Shown piece by piece: positions 21,245 to 45,290 of a DNA stretch of 64,000 nt (position 1 is the stretch's first letter; each line of letters begins with the position of its first letter). Source of the DNA: Candidatus Mycalebacterium zealandia (GTDB lineage: Bacteria; Desulfobacterota_D; UBA1144; Nemesobacterales; Mycalebacteriaceae); assembly GCA_014075295.1 (NCBI GenBank), contig CP046180.1:554040-618039 (forward strand), read 5' to 3'. Position numbers and translations under genes: made by a program. The notes under the pieces were generated by a model that was not told the DNA's origin, did not search any database, and worked only from the letters and a program-made list of their open reading frames with translations.

Positions 21245-22162
21245 TTGATGAAAAGTCATAACTTTCCTCTGCCTCTGGTTAGTATTCTTGTTCTTTCCTA
21301 TAACAGAAAAAGTTGGTTGCGGGAAAGTTTGGATTCAATCTTAGCTCAGGATTATCCGAATATTGAGATAATTGTTTGTGATGATGCTTCCACGGATGGA
21401 AGTCAGGATGTTTTGCGTGAATATAAGGAGAAAAACTCCGACATCAATTTTGTTTTATCTCTTTCATCTCAAAATGAGGGTATAACAGCAAATCTGAACA
21501 AAGGTCTTTCTTTTTATCAGGGCAAATATGTTGTCACCTTTTCAGATGACGACATTATGCTTCCGGAAAAAATTACCCGGCAAGTGGCTTTTATGGAAGA
21601 CAATCCCGATTGCGCCGTTTGTTACCACAATATGGAAGTTTTTGACGAGGATACCAATAAAACCTTGCGTCTTTTCAACCATAAAGGAAACAGTTACGAG
21701 GGTGGTGTTGAAGTCTCACTTAAATATGGAATGTTTTCCGGGGCACCCTCATGTATGTACAGAGCAGACAAAATTCCCGATGGGGGGTGTAACCCTCTCC
21801 TTTCCAATACGTCTGATTGGTTCTTTATAATAGAAATTCTGGCGGGTGGGGGGACTATAAATTACATTGACGAAGTTCTTCTGAGATACAGACGGCACGC
21901 CAATGCCGACTCCATGAAATCTGATAGGATGGACCCCGGTGTTTTAGATACTCTGAATACATGCAACATTGTAATATTCAAATATACTCATCTTTTTAAC
22001 GAGGCAATGTATGCGTATGCAAGACGACTTGAAAAGCTCAGCAGGAAAAAAGGAATTAATTACAGATCTGCGCTGATTTCCAGTTTGAGGTTGAGTTTTA
22101 GAATGAGCGCTTTTCTCCGTTTGCTTGCCTACATTTTTTCGTTTGGCAAACTCAAATTTTAA
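21245..22162 (+). CDS. glycosyltransferase family 2
   Basis: VSILVLSYNRKSWLRESLDSILAQDYPNIEIIVCDDASTDGS (GT2 DXD region). Confidence 0.75.
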   Translation: MMKSHNFPLPLVSILVLSYNRKSWLRESLDSILAQDYPNIEIIVCDDASTDGSQDVLREYKEKNSDINFVLSLSSQNEGITANLNKGLSFYQGKYVVTFSDDDIMLPEKITRQVAFMEDNPDCAVCYHNMEVFDEDTNKTLRLFNHKGNSYEGGVEVSLKYGMFSGAPSCMYRADKIPDGGCNPLLSNTSDWFFIIEILAGGGTINYIDEVLLRYRRHANADSMKSDRMDPGVLDTLNTCNIVIFKYTHLFNEAMYAYARRLEKLSRKKGINYRSALISSLRLSFRMSAFLRLLAYIFSFGKLKF

Positions 22163-24558: not shown

Positions 24559-26142
24559 TTAGTCCAAACTCCGGTAGCGTCCTTTTTGAATGATGAAGAC
24601 CGTGAGGCAGGGCACCGCCACGCCAATTACCGTGGCGGTTATCAGAAGTATTCCCAGTTCCGAATAGTCCGCGGATGTGATGATTTTCTGCGCTTCGTCT
24701 CTTACCTCGCGCGTTATGATAAAAATTTCATTCAAATACTTTGAGCCGAGGCTCGCCGCTGAAAGCGAGAGATTTGAAAAAGACGCGAACACGGCGAAAA
24801 AAGTCGCTTTGAGATGGTCGGGCGCGTTTTTCGCTATCCACGCGAGAAGCGGAATCATTGCCACCTGTCCCAGAGGGGATTCAAGTGCCGTGTTCACAAT
24901 CGCTATGAATTTTGCATCCACAACGCCGTCCGTCAGCGCCGCCGTCCATTCGTGAAGCCCGTAGAAAAGCCCAATGTCGGGAAGTGACAGAACGCCCCAC
25001 ACCAGGGACAGAAAAACAATAAGCCATGGTATTTTAACCCTGCTCATAAGAGGCAGAAAAACAAATATGCCCGCGAGCGTGAGAGTGGAGCCTATGAGCG
25101 ACAGATATGAGAAAAACTGCTCGTCAAAGCCAATTTCGTCTATCAGAAACCAGCCGTTTCCCGGACCTATGGTCGGCACGGCGCGGAAGAAAAAAATGAT
25201 TATCGCCGTTCCTATAAGAGTGGCGTGTTTATCTTCGGGCAGTTCGGTAAGCAGTTTTCGCATAAGGAAAATCACTATCGCCATGGAGCCCGTGAACACT
25301 ATTTCCTCCGAATAGGGAACTTTTGAGAGCCCCGTTCCGATGCTGAAAATGACAAAGGCGAGGCTCCCCCAGAGAATCCACCAGTTTGGTGCGGTTGGAG
25401 TCTGAAGCTTCGGCACGCCGGGTATATGTCCGGTTTTTTTCAGGATTTCAGCGAGAACAACGCCCATGATGGACACAAGCGGAATGGCGAGAGCCATAAG
25501 GTATATTTCACTGTAAACATGCGCTTTTTCCGGTCGGGAAAGTTCCGATGTGTCATTAAAGGCGACTATGTTGATAATTGAAACCACAACCGTGCCGCCG
25601 ATAACGGCAAATCTGCCGAGTGTTTGCATTGTTGTGTGCGCGGATTTGAGTTCCTCTTCGCTGATTTTTTCACCCCGGGAATCCACGGTGGGAACGGCTT
25701 CAACCGTCATCGCGTCCGCAACAACGTCCTGAAGCACATAACCGACGGGGCTGATAATCACGCTTGCTACGAACCAGTTGGAGATGGGCCAGATTTGCCG
25801 CATATATTCAGTGTGGGCTATCAGCCCGTAAACAATAAGCAGCCCCACCGCGATAAGTGCCGCGCCTATAAACACAAGGACGGATTTCCAGCGCCAGATC
25901 AGGTCAACAAGATGCCCAACTGGCATTTTGAGCGCCCACGGGAGCCCCGCCCAGAAGCCGAGACCGGCGAGAAAAGCGGCGGACAAGTCCAGATAGTCTT
26001 TGACAAAAAAAGTGGCGACAATTCCCGTAAGCCCCGAAATTCCCGCCGCCAAATACACCATAAGCGGCGGTATGTAGCTCAGTCGAAGCTGTTTGAAAAT
26101 CCCAACAAAATCTTCGGCGAAAAACTTCCTCAGCGTGTTCAT
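24559..26142 (-). CDS. large polytopic membrane protein, possibly a BT1 (folate-biopterin)-like MFS transporter
   Basis: 527 aa, at least 12 predicted TM segments. N-terminal FFVKDYLDLSAAFLAGLGFWAGLPWALKMPVGHLVDLIWRWKS resembles the BT1 family signature. Confidence 0.35.
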   Translation of the reverse strand: MNTLRKFFAEDFVGIFKQLRLSYIPPLMVYLAAGISGLTGIVATFFVKDYLDLSAAFLAGLGFWAGLPWALKMPVGHLVDLIWRWKSVLVFIGAALIAVGLLIVYGLIAHTEYMRQIWPISNWFVASVIISPVGYVLQDVVADAMTVEAVPTVDSRGEKISEEELKSAHTTMQTLGRFAVIGGTVVVSIINIVAFNDTSELSRPEKAHVYSEIYLMALAIPLVSIMGVVLAEILKKTGHIPGVPKLQTPTAPNWWILWGSLAFVIFSIGTGLSKVPYSEEIVFTGSMAIVIFLMRKLLTELPEDKHATLIGTAIIIFFFRAVPTIGPGNGWFLIDEIGFDEQFFSYLSLIGSTLTLAGIFVFLPLMSRVKIPWLIVFLSLVWGVLSLPDIGLFYGLHEWTAALTDGVVDAKFIAIVNTALESPLGQVAMIPLLAWIAKNAPDHLKATFFAVFASFSNLSLSAASLGSKYLNEIFIITREVRDEAQKIITSADYSELGILLITATVIGVAVPCLTVFIIQKGRYRSLD

Positions 26143-26250
26143 TGGTTGCCGTTTTGGACGGAATGGATAGTGAATGTTATGAGGTTGAGTGGGGGTTGTA
26201 AAGTGAAGGACACAAGCCGGACTTCTTACTCGGAAAAAAAGGCGTGCCGA

Positions 26251-26487
26251 GTTGTGAATTGAGGGCAGGTTTCAGTCAGTTACAATCTGCGCGCGCTATC
26301 TTCAATCTGTCTTTGAGTTGTGAATTAAGGGCAGGTTTCAGTCAGTTACAATACGGACAAATTATTGTAAGACAGGGCAGGGGGTGTTGTGAATTAAGGG
26401 CAGGTTTCAGTCAGTTACAATTTACAGTTCGCACTTCCTACCAAGGCGCGAGTTGTGAATTAAGGGCAGGTTTCAGTCAGTTACAAT
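26251..26487 (+). CRISPR. CRISPR array, 4 repeats / 3 spacers, 36-bp repeat GTTGTGAATTAAGGGCAGGTTTCAGTCAGTTACAAT
   Basis: Repeats at 26251-26286 (variant with G at position 11), 26317-26352, 26386-26421 and 26452-26487. Spacers are 30, 33 and 30 nt. Sits directly 3' of cas2. The ORF-track entry 26244..26489 is a translation artefact of the array. Confidence 0.9.
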
Positions 26488-26537
26488 AGCTCGTCCTCAA
26501 CTGTCCTGCTGGCAAGGGGTTATGGCTTTTCCACAAA

Positions 26538-26870: not shown

Positions 26871-27779
26871 TTACATTTCAATCCTCATTTGTTTGTTCTC
26901 AATCAGTTCCGGTATTTTCAAAGAGTCAATTCCTTCTGAAAACGCTTTCTTCAGGCTCGCGGCCATGTATTGATTTGCCACCATCATTGGCAATTTCTTT
27001 TCTTCAAGTAAAACATCTTCAGACAGAAGGGAAAGCAATGATAACTTTATCTTTTTATCAATTTCTGTTTTTCCATTTTCGTTCAATTCATAAACTCGTC
27101 TGTCAACAAGAGGTCTCAACGGTTCCATAATGTCATCGGCGAGACACATAGGGTTGTATTGATTGTGATGATGAATTCCGAGCGCAGGATGAAGCCCTGT
27201 TCCGCACAAAGCGCGAGCAACAGACGCCCTGATTAGGCTGTATCCGTAGTTTAGAAGGGAATTCACTCCACTTTCTTTGTAATCTCTGCCGAATTCTTTC
27301 CCGAACAGTATTGACCAGTATATTTTTGCGGCTTGCGCTTCAATATTTTTCGGATCACCACTTTGAACTCTCTTCTTGAGACTTGGAAGTGTTCCCGGAT
27401 CTTTCTTGAAAAAGAGCAACGTTTGAATCTGCGCCTCGGTTTTGGCTATTATAATTTTCTGCCAGAGCCGTTTTTTCAGCGGTTTTTTAACTCCCGTCTG
27501 TATGTTGAGAACCTTGCTGTGCATTGAGTTTCCTGAGAGAGGAAGCAAGGCGGAAACGGGTAGATGCCTTTGGTCGCAAAACACAATTATGCAGTTATTT
27601 TTCTGACATTCCGCTATAAGACTTTGAGAGATTGAGATTGCAGGGTTGGCAAGTATGAGAATACCCATGTCTTCCACGGGAATACTGCTGTCATTTTCAC
27701 TCTCTTTTCTGATAATCATCTGACAGTCTTTCAGATGAAGGTATGCGGGGTTGCTGATTTCAATGATTCTTTTGATCAT
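26871..27779 (-). CDS. cas1: CRISPR-associated integrase Cas1 (type II)
   Basis: 302 aa, type II Cas1-like throughout. Its start overlaps the cas9 stop by 4 nt. Confidence 0.9.
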   Translation of the reverse strand: MIKRIIEISNPAYLHLKDCQMIIRKESENDSSIPVEDMGILILANPAISISQSLIAECQKNNCIIVFCDQRHLPVSALLPLSGNSMHSKVLNIQTGVKKPLKKRLWQKIIIAKTEAQIQTLLFFKKDPGTLPSLKKRVQSGDPKNIEAQAAKIYWSILFGKEFGRDYKESGVNSLLNYGYSLIRASVARALCGTGLHPALGIHHHNQYNPMCLADDIMEPLRPLVDRRVYELNENGKTEIDKKIKLSLLSLLSEDVLLEEKKLPMMVANQYMAASLKKAFSEGIDSLKIPELIENKQMRIEM

Positions 27780-30700
27780 TGTGTTTTAGTGTTGTTTTTA
27801 GCGAGACCAAGAGCATTTATGGATTCTTGTTTTACTTTGTATTCCGCCATTAGTGTTGAAGGAGCCATTGCCAATTCAAGTTTTTTCTTTTCATCGGAGG
27901 ATAGTTTTTTAAAATCTTGATCTGAGGTTCCGTCTGTGTGTTTTCGTAGTATCAATTTTATACACTGATTTTTCTGTCCTCTGTCTATTTTCCGCACTCT
28001 ATAGAATATTTTCTCACCGTTTTTCTGAACACTTACGGTGTCATTTATACATAGACTCATAACAAATTCCCGGTTTTCCCCGTGTTCAGTTTTTACAATC
28101 GGTTCTTTCCTAATTCTTGTTCTCTCTGCGGCTTTCATAGTTGTTACAACAATACTCTCATATTTTCCGGTTTCTCCATTCTTGATAATTTCCACATGAT
28201 GATTGTTGCCATATTGCAAAACCTTTGAGATTTTTCCTGCTTTATTCTTCTTCGTATAGTAAAAACTCTCATTAAAGGTTTTAGACATCCAAACTTTAAC
28301 GCGTCTGACAGCATCTCCCGTTTCCGGGTGTTTCAACGGTTGTTCTTTCAAAGCTTTTTTTGCCTTGCTCAAATCATTTCCTTGTTCCAAAACATATCTT
28401 TCAAATGCTTCTCTAACAGTTGGAGATACTATCTCTTTGTTCTTCAACACAGCGTCTGATATATCAGTCAAGTTTTTACGAACAACAATTCCTTTTTTGC
28501 CGTTTTCTTCTCTTACTCCATAAATCGTGTCTTCGTGAAATGCTCCCGTTATTTTTCTGTTTGTTGCATGAGAGACAATCATTCCATCTACAGCTTCCTG
28601 CAGTCTGTTTCTGAGATTGTCAAGAATTCTAGGGGGTTCCAATCCATGTTCGGGGTCTATGGAATCACCGCTAGCCTCTGATGCCACTTTGACTATTTTT
28701 TGATAAAGACTGCGGTTCGTAAGCGCAATCACGGTTGCGTCAATCGCGTGGTGTCTGTGGTCGGCGCGGTTTTTCTCTCCCGTTTCGCTGAGAATTTTAT
28801 TTAATCCCCATTGGTGACGGAGCCAACTTGTTATTCCGCCTTTTGTAAAAGTTACATCGCAACCGAGAGTTCTCATATACTTGCCGGTTTCTTTTGCTAT
28901 GTAGCGTGCGTCAGTCAGCTGGCTGTTAACAAAATCTTCAATTCCTTCCATTTTTTTTGCCAGAATTCTTCCGCATTTTGCTTCGGGATAGTTGTTGCGT
29001 TTTGCCATGCTCTCAATGGTTTTCCATTGTTCTGTTTCGCCAAATGCTTCCCACGGTGTTTTGTTGTGCTTTTCCCTGTTCTCTTTTGCAAAACATATGA
29101 CCTTGTTCATATAAGAGTTATCAAGACTTCTGCTATACGGAAGAATGTGATCTATTTCAACATCGGAAGACCAGAGGTCCGTCAAACTGATAGACTTTCC
29201 GCTGTATGAACATTTACACTCACTTTCTTTCCAGAGTCTGTATTTCAGTTTGTCCTGATGGCTTATATATTTCTTTAACCGCAAGTCGGGTTCCCTATCT
29301 CTGATGCTATTGTATTTTTCTTCCGCTTCCTCATTGGCTTTCCTATTCTTTTTATGTATTTGTTCCGCTCTTTTGTATTTTTCCGTGTTCATCTCTAAAT
29401 CACGAGACATTTCTATGCGTATAGCGGTTGGTTTCCCGTACTCTTTGATAATTGCATTCACAACACGCCGGACTTCATAAAGAGCTTTTGTAACAATGGG
29501 ATTCGGTATAAAAGGCAGTTCGCCAAGAGTTTCTTTGTCTCCGGTCTTCGGTTTTGTAATGTCTTTATAGCCTGCTACTTGAACCGCTCCCGTTTCATCT
29601 TCCTTGTCGCTTTCCCTGCTATAAACCCTGCCTTCTTTAAGGTGTGGCAGGATTTTATTTATTGCTTTCAGTGAAAGATTTCCATGTCCCTCTTCCAATT
29701 CCAGAACAGCAAGTTTGACAGCTTTTTCCAAATCAAATTTCCAGTGATCTTGCAGGCGTTTTTTCAGTTTTATTTTGGACTCATAGGAAATTAAGTCTTC
29801 AACAAGTTGTTTTTGTTTGCTGTCGTCGAGTGAGTCGTCCCAATCATCTCCGATAATCTCTCTTATTCCGCAAGCTGTTGTGTTTCCCTTAATACCCTTT
29901 CTGCTTTTTCCTTCAACTTTTTCCAGATTGAATTTTGTTCGTTTGTTCAGGCTGAACAGGGTTTTTATTTTTGCCCATGTCAGATTTTTGTTTTTCTCAA
30001 GCGTTTCGGCAATTAGTTGTTTCTGCTCAGGCGAGGGTTTTACATCTCTTTCTCCCGTTTCGGTGTCATCCCAACTTAAATTGTTAATGTCCTGCCAGTA
30101 ACGAAATTGCTGAAATTCAAGACGTTCCATTTTCACTCTTTTCTTTTTCGGTTCAAGAGAACAATTACCCACGGTGTTTTTATTCCAAATTATAGAGCGT
30201 TGGTTAAAGATGATTTTCTCAATCGCGTTTTTGACATTTTCCGTATAAATCTTTGGATTAAGTGCGAATTGCTTACGGAAGATTTGTTCAAACTCTTCCT
30301 GATACATTTTTCTGTCGGTTCTGCGGTCATGATATTCTCCTCTGTTGCGTTTGCGGTTCAGGGTTGAGAGGTGTTCGCCAAGGGTTCTTTTTCCGGCTTC
30401 TTTTATATCATCTCGGAGTTCTTGAATGTCTTTTTTGAATTTGTTTTCATCGTTGTCAGTTTTTGCAGATTTATCTTCAATTTCTAAAATTTCCCGCACC
30501 TCCGGGTCATCACGCAAATTTCCAAATCCCGTTTTGCGGTTGCTTAAAAATCCTCGCCGTGTTCCCAAGTGAAGTATCGCGCGTCCAAACTTATGTGGAG
30601 TCAATTCTTCGTCCAACGCTTTTGCCCTTAAATCATAAGGGTTGCCCAGTTTGTTAAGTTCCGTTTCAGGATTGGGTTCATCTTTCAGAGAATTCGGCAG

Positions 30701-30964
30701 AAATTCTTTGCTTATCAGATAGTTTCTCAGACGCATTTTACGTCTATGTCGCCTTTCAATTACACGCCTTAAAAGCCGTTTCTCTCGACGGTTTTGATTT
30801 TTTGGGGTGGGTGTTTTGTCTTCAACGGAACGGATAAAAATCCTGCTTCCACAACTTACGAGTCCTTTCGGTTTGCCGTTCTTTTCCTCTACAACACTCC
30901 AGCCAATGGAGTTTGTTCCCATATCAAGACCAATTGTGTATTCAGACAGTTTTGCTTTTTTCAT
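27776..30964 (-). CDS. cas9: Cas9 endonuclease, type II-C
   Basis: 1062 aa. RuvC-I motif YTIGLDMGTNSIGWSVV (Asp14). HNH motif VEIDHILPYSRSLDNSYMNKVICFAKENREKHNKTP (His about residue 606). Arg-rich bridge helix KNQNRREKRLLRRVIERRHRRKMRLR. No csn2 or cas4 in the locus, hence II-C. Confidence 0.9.
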   Translation of the reverse strand: MKKAKLSEYTIGLDMGTNSIGWSVVEEKNGKPKGLVSCGSRIFIRSVEDKTPTPKNQNRREKRLLRRVIERRHRRKMRLRNYLISKEFLPNSLKDEPNPETELNKLGNPYDLRAKALDEELTPHKFGRAILHLGTRRGFLSNRKTGFGNLRDDPEVREILEIEDKSAKTDNDENKFKKDIQELRDDIKEAGKRTLGEHLSTLNRKRNRGEYHDRRTDRKMYQEEFEQIFRKQFALNPKIYTENVKNAIEKIIFNQRSIIWNKNTVGNCSLEPKKKRVKMERLEFQQFRYWQDINNLSWDDTETGERDVKPSPEQKQLIAETLEKNKNLTWAKIKTLFSLNKRTKFNLEKVEGKSRKGIKGNTTACGIREIIGDDWDDSLDDSKQKQLVEDLISYESKIKLKKRLQDHWKFDLEKAVKLAVLELEEGHGNLSLKAINKILPHLKEGRVYSRESDKEDETGAVQVAGYKDITKPKTGDKETLGELPFIPNPIVTKALYEVRRVVNAIIKEYGKPTAIRIEMSRDLEMNTEKYKRAEQIHKKNRKANEEAEEKYNSIRDREPDLRLKKYISHQDKLKYRLWKESECKCSYSGKSISLTDLWSSDVEIDHILPYSRSLDNSYMNKVICFAKENREKHNKTPWEAFGETEQWKTIESMAKRNNYPEAKCGRILAKKMEGIEDFVNSQLTDARYIAKETGKYMRTLGCDVTFTKGGITSWLRHQWGLNKILSETGEKNRADHRHHAIDATVIALTNRSLYQKIVKVASEASGDSIDPEHGLEPPRILDNLRNRLQEAVDGMIVSHATNRKITGAFHEDTIYGVREENGKKGIVVRKNLTDISDAVLKNKEIVSPTVREAFERYVLEQGNDLSKAKKALKEQPLKHPETGDAVRRVKVWMSKTFNESFYYTKKNKAGKISKVLQYGNNHHVEIIKNGETGKYESIVVTTMKAAERTRIRKEPIVKTEHGENREFVMSLCINDTVSVQKNGEKIFYRVRKIDRGQKNQCIKLILRKHTDGTSDQDFKKLSSDEKKKLELAMAPSTLMAEYKVKQESINALGLAKNNTKTQ

Positions 30965-30984: not shown

Positions 30985-31012
30985 TTGACAAATTGCTTTG
31001 TCCCGATACGAT
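30985..31012 (+). promoter_or_regulatory. candidate sigma70 promoter for the tracrRNA (TTGACA -N16- TACGAT)
   Basis: Perfect -35 TTGACA at 30985-30990 and TACGAT at 31007-31012, placing +1 about 31019-31021 at the first base of the anti-repeat. Overlaps the 5' region upstream of cas9, in divergent orientation. Confidence 0.4.
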
Positions 31013-31020
31013 ACATAACT

Positions 31021-31136
31021 ATTGTTACTGACTGAAACCTGTCCAAACATTTTTTTTCAATTCATAACAAGAGACTAATGTTTCGCAGGCAACCCCTTCG
31101 GGGGACCTTGGCGCCTCCCAGTGGGGCGCTTTTTTA
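31021..31136 (+). ncRNA. tracrRNA: predicted tracrRNA
   Basis: 31021-31044 ATTGTTACTGACTGAAACCTGTCC matches the reverse complement of repeat positions 13-36 at 22/24. 31059-31068 AATTCATAAC complements repeat positions 1-10 with one G-U wobble. Between them is a 14-nt U-rich bulge. Downstream are a CCCC-TTCG-GGGG hairpin and a GC-rich hairpin GCGCCUC-CCAGU-GGGGCGC followed by TTTTTT at 31130-31135. Confidence 0.6.
31111..31135 (+). terminator. intrinsic terminator of the tracrRNA
   Basis: 7-bp GC-rich stem (GCGCCUC / GGGGCGC with one G-U) and a 5-nt loop, then a U6 tract. Confidence 0.6.
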
Positions 31137-37928: not shown

Positions 37929-38001
37929 GAGCCGTTAGCTCAGCTGGCAGAGCAACTGCCTTTTAAGCAGTGGGTCGCAGGTTCGAATCCTGCACGGCTC
38001 A
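37929..38001 (+). tRNA. tRNA-Lys (anticodon TTT)
   Basis: Cloverleaf GAGCCGT / ACGGCTC acceptor, D-arm GCTCAGCTGGCAGAGC, anticodon loop CTTTTAA, T-arm GTCGCAGGTTCGAATCCTGCAC. No encoded CCA. Confidence 0.85.
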
Positions 38002-38012
38002 TTTCAAGTCCG

Positions 38013-38087
38013 GTCCCCGTCGTCTAGCCTGGCCCAGGACACCGCCCTTTCACGGTGGCAACAGGGGTTCGAATCCCCTCGGGGACG
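38013..38087 (+). tRNA. tRNA-Glu (anticodon TTC)
   Basis: Near-identical to E. coli tRNA-Glu: GTCCCCG...CCCTTTCACGG...AGGGGTTCGAATCCCCT...CGGGGAC. Confidence 0.85.
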
Positions 38088-45123: not shown

Positions 45124-45197
45124 GCGTCCCCGGAGGGATTTGAACCCCCGACCCCGGGATTAGGAATCCCGTGCTCTATCCAACTGAGCTACGGGGA
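45124..45197 (-). tRNA. tRNA-Arg (anticodon CCT)
   Basis: Minus-strand GTCCCCG-TA-GCTCAGTTGGATAGAGC-A-CGGGATTCCTAATCCCG-GGGTC-GGGGGTTCAAATCCCTC-CGGGGAC-G. Confidence 0.8.
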
Positions 45198-45290
45198 CGT
45201 TTCCAGCGTACTTTAACCGTCCGCGCCTGTTTGTTCAAAAGCGCGAAATTTTAGATGCCCCGCACTTGTATTATAGTCATGCCTTATGTT

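Follow-up and report, generated by a model that had tools for sequence, protein, structure and literature searches.

Organization of the CRISPR-Cas9 locus

The window (the whole 64,000-nt stretch of DNA that was analysed) contains a CRISPR-Cas locus that is flanked by a transporter gene and an aldehyde dehydrogenase gene and is laid out in the order tracrRNA, divergent cas9-cas1-cas2, 50-nt leader and array. The features referred to below are the following:

26143..26250, no strand assigned: cas-distal flank, 108 nt, divergent intergenic region of the transporter gene
26251..26286, plus strand: repeat 1, cas-distal, the presumed oldest or 'extra' repeat, with TTGAGG-16-TACAAT
26287..26316, plus strand: spacer 1, 30 nt
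26317..26352, plus strand: repeat 2, with TTAAGG-16-TACAAT
26353..26385, plus strand: spacer 2, 33 nt, an unusual length
26386..26421, plus strand: repeat 3
26422..26451, plus strand: spacer 3, 30 nt, the newest by the inferred polarity
26452..26487, plus strand: repeat 4, leader-adjacent, the putative integration site for new spacers (PMC12080349)
26281-26286, 26347-26352, 26416-26421 and 26482-26487, plus strand: -10-like hexamers TACAAT
26488..26537, no strand assigned: putative leader (in the integration sense), 50 nt, from the last repeat to the cas2 stop codon
26538..26867, minus strand: cas2 (NCBIfam TIGR01573, E=4.8e-21)
26871..27779, minus strand: cas1 of type II, NMENI subtype (NCBIfam TIGR03639, E=2.3e-85)
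27776..30964, minus strand: cas9, 1062 aa (NCBIfam TIGR01865, E=8e-192)
30985..31012, plus strand: predicted tracrRNA promoter TTGACA-16-TACGAT, from a scan for sigma-70-like sites, with equivalents upstream of the anti-repeats of relatives
31021..31136, plus strand: predicted tracrRNA with anti-repeat, two hairpins, terminator hairpin (31110-31130) and T-run

The cas genes at the locus are cas9, cas1 and cas2 only, with neither csn2 nor cas4, which is the gene content that defines type II-C. The Cas9 encoded in the window is 100% identical to a protein from a metagenome-assembled genome of Candidatus Mycalebacterium zealandia and 44-46% identical to the Cas9 proteins of Methylomonas, Rhodocyclus and others; among solved structures, the best matches are Cas9 chains of 1082-1095 aa (approximately E=1e-77). 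By gene content, the locus is an ordinary Neisseria-type (type II-C) CRISPR-Cas9 system of the uncultured Dadabacteria bacterium Candidatus Mycalebacterium zealandia, an unusual host that belongs to a sponge-associated candidate phylum. An Rfam scan of the whole window returned three tRNAs only and no curated family at the CRISPR locus; the tRNA genes are located at 37929-38001 and 38013-38087 on the plus strand and at 45125-45198 on the minus strand.

A first-pass annotation of this DNA had placed an array at 26251-26487 and had noted TACAAT at the end of every repeat. Both statements were confirmed: the 36-nt repeat GTTGTGAATTAAGGGCAGGTTTCAGTCAGTTACAAT is present there in four plus-strand copies (shuffled sequences are expected to contain none), and all four copies have GTTACAAT as their 3' end. 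Repeat 1 differs from the consensus by an A to G change at position 11 (26261). The distances given in the same annotation were also accurate, with 50 nt (26488-26537) separating the array from the cas2 stop codon and 108 nt (26143-26250) separating it from the upstream gene. To the left of the array, the nearest ORF (24559-26142) is that of a BT1/MFS-type transporter; it is a minus-strand ORF and has its start codon at 26142, which makes the gap 26143-26250 a divergent intergenic region. A minus-strand promoter-like site within this gap (TTTACA-17-TAACAT at 26174-26202) faces the transporter gene, and the flank is therefore likely to be the promoter region of the transporter.

Several observations on the array and its flank stand apart from the main argument. 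The length of spacer 2 (33 nt) is found in 3 of 783 family spacers, of which 633 are 30 nt long. The 3' part of this spacer, TTGT-AAGACAGGGCAGG, resembles the 5' part of the repeat (positions 2-19; p ~0.03 against shuffles), and the spacer also contains an inverted TTACAAT that gives rise to a minus-strand promoter-like match, TTCACA-18-TACAAT. A decayed older repeat was considered at 26195-26209, 56 nt upstream of repeat 1, where GTTGTAAAGTGAAGG agrees with 12 of the first 15 repeat positions; this candidate was rejected (p ~0.11 against shuffles). Protospacers were sought in IMG/VR viral contigs in order to orient the array by its PAM side, and no exact match to spacers 1 and 3 was found there.

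The tracrRNA and the strand of the guide RNAs

Upstream of cas9 and divergent from it, the plus strand carries an anti-repeat at 31021-31067 (ATTGTTACTGACTGAAACCTGTCC ... AATTCATAAC) and, further downstream, a terminator at 31110-31136 that consists of a GC-rich hairpin (31110-31130) followed by a T-run. Co-folding of the tracrRNA with the plus-strand repeat yielded stems of 10 bp and 23 bp and a predicted energy of -71.4 kcal/mol, and across the repeats of the window the predicted duplex energies ranged from -71 to -77 kcal/mol. The anti-repeat contains a 14-nt U-rich insertion, AAACATTTTTTTTC (31045-31058), which appears in the duplex as a large one-sided bulge on the tracrRNA side; other loci of the Dadabacteria clade have anti-repeat insertions at a similar position, the sequence of which varies.

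As a comparison set, 80 related loci were fetched by Cas9 alignment, 56 of which have an array. The anti-repeat lies on the strand opposite cas9 in 54 of these 56 array-containing loci, and in 22 of the 23 loci that were inspected in detail it is found upstream of cas9 and is followed by a conserved TTCATAAC/TTCATACC stretch, hairpins and a terminator. Since the tracrRNA promoter, the anti-repeat and the terminator in the window are all on the plus strand, the guides are expected on the plus strand as well: a minus-strand transcript of the array would have the same sense as the anti-repeat, so that pairing with the tracrRNA would be impossible. By this predicted pairing, the crRNAs must be plus-strand molecules that run opposite to cas9-cas1-cas2 and are read from the cas-distal end towards cas2. 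Plus-strand crRNAs converging on cas2, as proposed in the first-pass annotation, are thus borne out by the plus-strand tracrRNA and by the orientation of the anti-repeat in the related loci.

Polarity of the array and position of the leader

In the related loci, variant repeats were located at the cas-distal first position of the array in 11 cases, at the last position in one case and at internal positions only in three cases, and most of the changes in these arrays affect the 5' half of the repeat sequence. On the cas2 side, the flanks of the arrays (54 distinct sequences from very different hosts) have conserved positions, namely an A at +1 in 38 of the 54, AA at +12/+13 in 49 and 51, respectively, a T at +19 in 46 and a G at +20 in 35. 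On the opposite side, the 30 nt that precede the first repeat of related arrays showed no conservation (information content of at most 0.27 bit). The first-pass annotation had described the array as leaderless, or as having no obvious leader, and this is wrong in the integration sense, given the conserved motif on the cas2 side and the variant repeats at the far end. By this comparison of loci, the 50 nt beside cas2 are the predicted acquisition leader, situated at the transcriptionally downstream end of the array. Because it lies downstream in the direction of transcription, this leader cannot supply the promoter.

The four repeats of the window follow the same polarity at position 11. G11 is the state of 48 of the 49 family repeats and is kept in the window array by repeat 1 only, while repeats 2-4 (positions 26327, 26396 and 26462) all have A11, a derived state that no other repeat of the family shows. 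An ancestral G11 in repeat 1 together with a derived A11 in repeats 2-4 is the pattern that would result from using the cas2-proximal repeat as the template for new ones. In type II-C systems, acquisition takes place at the transcriptionally last repeat, and the oldest repeat is the first or 'extra' one, in which mutations among the first 15 nt are common (PMC12080349); the Neisseria leader adjoins the last repeat, R26 (PMC12477760). From the sequence comparison and this published work on type II-C we infer that new spacers enter at repeat 4, adjoining the leader. G11 of repeat 1 pairs with a C in the tracrRNA, and by co-folding the duplex with the tracrRNA was predicted at -77.0 kcal/mol for repeat 1 versus -71.4 kcal/mol for the younger repeats. 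In the window it is thus the oldest repeat that pairs better with the tracrRNA; for the extra repeats of type II-C arrays, the reported trend runs the other way (PMC12080349).

The repeat end as a candidate promoter

The terminal hexamer of the repeat reads TAnAnT in all 49 distinct repeats of the Cas9 clade. TACACT is the most frequent version (24 repeats), followed by TACAAT (10), TATACT (7), TAAAAT (3) and TAAATT (2), and the remaining repeats end in TAAACT, TAGAAT or TAGACT. Repeat positions 31, 32, 34 and 36 (T1, A2, A4 and T6 of the hexamer) are invariant among the 49 repeats and positions 33 and 35 vary. Read as a -10 element, the invariant bases would be T-12, A-11, A-9 and T-7, and these include the bases of the sigma-70 -10 consensus that are generally held to be best conserved. 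In addition, 48 of the 49 repeats have G at -14. Variants of the hexamer are usually matched by a change in the anti-repeat (AGTGTA, AGTATA, AGTCTA or ATTGTA), and in some Dadabacteria loci the repeat and the anti-repeat pair poorly at the hexamer end. As the anti-repeat follows the hexamer variants, base pairing alone does not explain the four invariant bases.

On the basis of homology and conservation we consider it fairly probable that promoters are embedded in the repeats and that each repeat starts its own guide RNA. This idea fits both the family-wide invariance of TAnAnT and the type II-C biology described in the literature (PMC3656092, PMC12477760, PMC12080349).

The candidate element is incomplete in the window. 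A T at -15, which would make up the TG of an extended -10 element, is present in 1 of the 49 family repeats and absent in 48, and the window repeats read AGT-TACAAT. At 16 nt upstream of the hexamer the family repeats have a -35-like TTG (T9 in 49/49, T10 in 40/49 and G11 in 48/49), which in repeats 2-4 of the window is TTA. The -35-like TTAAGG of these three repeats matches at 3 of 6 positions, so that the whole element reaches 8/12 and falls below the 9/12 threshold of the scan; repeat 1, with TTGAGG-16-TACAAT, reaches 9/12 and was the sole window repeat reported by the promoter scan. The tracrRNA promoter has a perfect TTGACA as its -35, which suggests that the polymerase may use -35 elements and that a -10-only site could therefore be weak.

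Downstream of the hexamer, spacer nucleotides 5-8, where a transcription start would be expected, showed no purine enrichment over 769 family spacers of 29-31 nt. In the same 769 spacers, nucleotides 1-3 are slightly A/T-rich (0.58-0.59 versus 0.52 overall), an excess that could reflect either a promoter discriminator or an integrase preference. Point changes in the first repeats of related loci spare the hexamer, though not significantly so (0 of 12, with about 2 expected, p ~0.11), and several of the variant first repeats look like 5' truncations, which would trivially give the same asymmetry.

The conserved bases at the repeat end could instead be kept by Cas1-Cas2, which would recognize them as part of the integration site, perhaps together with a contribution of RNase III or the tracrRNA; in that case the resemblance to a -10 element would be coincidental or would matter little in this organism. 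This explanation draws on the fact that the invariant bases abut the conserved leader, that the other repeat end (GTTGTG) is equally invariant, and that one end is in part an inverted copy of the other, T3 and T5 of GTTGTG being found again in AnTnTA, the reverse complement of the hexamer; the lack of the TG extension in 48 of the 49 repeats points in the same direction. It leaves aside, however, that the fixed positions T-12, A-11, A-9 and T-7 include the best-conserved bases of sigma-70 -10 elements. Moreover, the repeats of Neisseria and Campylobacter are reported to use the same element as a promoter (PMC3656092, PMC5965381, PMC12477760), and roles in integration and in transcription are not mutually exclusive. 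Sequence analysis alone cannot separate a Cas1-Cas2 constraint from a promoter function at the repeat end, and we regard the integrase explanation as unlikely.

A single pre-crRNA could also be transcribed from a promoter outside the array, located either in the flank 26143-26250 or antisense within the transporter gene, and TACAAT would then play no part. With three spacers the array is short and one weak promoter would be enough, and the repeat-internal element is itself weak (8/12, without TG). The flank contained no plus-strand sigma-70-like site reaching 9/12 matches, and the candidate that could be read by eye in these 108 nt, TTATGA-16-TAAAGT, is a weak one (7/12). Among 34 complete related arrays, a sense-strand sigma-70-like site within 150 nt upstream was found in 4, as compared to 4.7 +/- 1.8 in shuffles, i.e. 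without enrichment, and the sequences upstream of these arrays are not conserved; as a positive control, the same scan reported a correctly placed promoter match upstream of 22 of 54 tracrRNA genes. Some related arrays have at least 41 repeats, and their newest spacers are the ones farthest from any distal promoter. Read-through from an upstream gene is unlikely as well, since the nearest plus-strand ORF in the ORF list, leaving out those that overlap a longer minus-strand ORF, ends at 22162. Altogether, we judge an outside promoter to be improbable.

That the crRNAs are minus-strand transcripts which run in the direction of the cas genes from a cas2-side leader, as in type II-A, is barely tenable: the conserved leader does lie on the cas2 side, where type II-A promoters sit (PMC12477760), but such transcripts would share the sense of the anti-repeat and could not pair with the tracrRNA, the promoter, 3' hairpins and terminator of which are on the plus strand in the window and in its relatives.

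Proposed mechanism

According to the repeat-embedded promoter mechanism, which we favor, the sigma-70 -10 element TACAAT at the end of each repeat would recruit RNA polymerase, and transcription would start about 5-8 nt into the following spacer, a range extrapolated from Neisseria (6th nt) and Campylobacter (5th nt). Each spacer would be transcribed separately, giving a 5'-triphosphate RNA made up of a guide of about 23-25 nt and the next repeat. This repeat would form a duplex with the tracrRNA, within which RNase III may cut to give the crRNA its 3' end, and Cas9 would then be loaded. Repeat 1 would act as the promoter of spacer 1 only; as it would not itself be transcribed, no 'extraneous' guide would be produced. 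Repeat 4 would fire into the leader, antisense to cas2, without a guide being made, and the window scan found no plus-strand terminator between the array and cas2. A search upstream of the array for the other mechanisms described in PMC12080349, a terminator or a guide-sequestering hairpin, yielded nothing convincing.

The first-pass annotation had further predicted that the crRNAs would need no RNase III processing at their 5' ends. The part of this prediction that stands is that 5' trimming would not be needed, but the reference to RNase III was imprecise: the RNase III cut of type II systems falls inside the repeat:anti-repeat duplex and generates the 3' end of the crRNA (PMC3656092, PMC5965381).

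A possible promoter of cas9

Read on its complement, the anti-repeat resembles the repeat and has a -10-like end that points at cas9; the scan reported a match there, TGGACA-16-AATAGT, on the minus strand at 31045-31018. In gammaproteobacterial relatives the -35 of the tracrRNA promoter, either TTGCTC or TTGACC, shares bases with the start codon of cas9, and a TACACT on the anti-repeat complement is found some 30 nt before the ATG of cas9. There may be a repeat-derived cas9 promoter, in which case the cas9 5' UTR and the tracrRNA would overlap in antisense. In a more far-reaching version, the whole clade (Dadabacteria, Methylococcales, Binatia and others) would have, in place of the extended -10 type validated in Neisseria and Campylobacter, a two-part repeat promoter, TTG-N19-TAnAnT with G at -14, and a mirror copy of it on the anti-repeat complement would drive the cas9 operon. 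We think this version improbable; if it is true, repeat-derived promoter modules drive both the guides and the cas genes.

Comparison with known systems

Repeat-embedded promoters and acquisition at the last repeat are already treated as general properties of type II-C (PMC12080349), and the current picture of type II-C biology would be unchanged even if the mechanism proposed here is confirmed. What is mildly new is that an environmental Cas9 clade keeps TAnAnT without the TG, together with the possible cas9 promoter. Confirmation would extend repeat-embedded crRNA promoters to the candidate phylum Dadabacteria and to a broad environmental Cas9 clade and would mean that repeat promoters work without the TG extension of the two validated cases. 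It would also help with the annotation of array orientation and with guide design for compact Cas9s (a guide of about 23-25 nt inside a 30-nt spacer).

The first of the validated cases is Neisseria meningitidis 8013, in which crRNA promoters are embedded in the repeats and transcription starts at the 6th spacer nucleotide (PMC12477760). The locus in the window resembles this system in that it has cas9-cas1-cas2 only, a 36-nt repeat of the form GTTGT...TACAAT and 30-nt spacers (PMC12477760, PMC5965381), and also in the acquisition at the leader-adjacent last repeat (PMC12477760), as predicted for the window. The Neisseria repeat end that the first-pass annotation had given is correct, as the repeat of strain 8013 does end in ...GTGCTACAAT (PMC12477760). 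The likeness that the annotation drew from it holds for the shared TACAAT end and fails for the TG of the extended -10 element, since Neisseria has TGC-TACAAT and the window has AGT-TACAAT. Unlike Neisseria, the window has an unrelated repeat middle and no TGC before TACAAT, and it is known from sequence alone. The RNase III step at the 3' end is dispensable in Neisseria (PMC5965381).

In Campylobacter, the second case, promoters are likewise embedded in the repeats, and the primary crRNA 5' ends map to spacer nucleotide 5 (PMC3656092). The minimal type II-C system of Campylobacter jejuni is similar to that of the window in having a -10 box at the end of each repeat (GGTAAAAT; PMC3656092), and it needs RNase III and the tracrRNA for the crRNA 3' end only (PMC3656092). 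TAAAAT also forms the terminal hexamer of three repeats of the Cas9 clade of the window. As for differences, the Campylobacter element has been described as an extended -10 box, and the Campylobacter Cas9 and repeat come from another branch. Extended -10 elements are described in the repeats of both validated systems (PMC3656092, PMC7038990).

In the survey of more than 650 type II-C systems by Feussner et al. 2025 (PMC12080349), acquisition is at the last repeat and the first repeat, the oldest, is often mutated, and the array of the window agrees with both, its first repeat differing at position 11. It departs from the trend of this survey in that its first repeat pairs better with the tracrRNA and that the younger repeats carry the derived base (PMC12080349). 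For type II-C systems of Flavobacterium, a repeat-encoded 'TTG', located some 35 nt before the expected start, has been proposed as a part of the promoter (PMC10309648). The clade of the window similarly has a TTG 16 nt upstream of the hexamer, with TTA in repeats 2-4 of the window itself. The promoter consensus of Bacteroidetes is a different one. In its gene content, tracrRNA, guide strand, repeat end and predicted polarity, the locus matches the type II-C design of Neisseria and Campylobacter, save for the missing TG extension.
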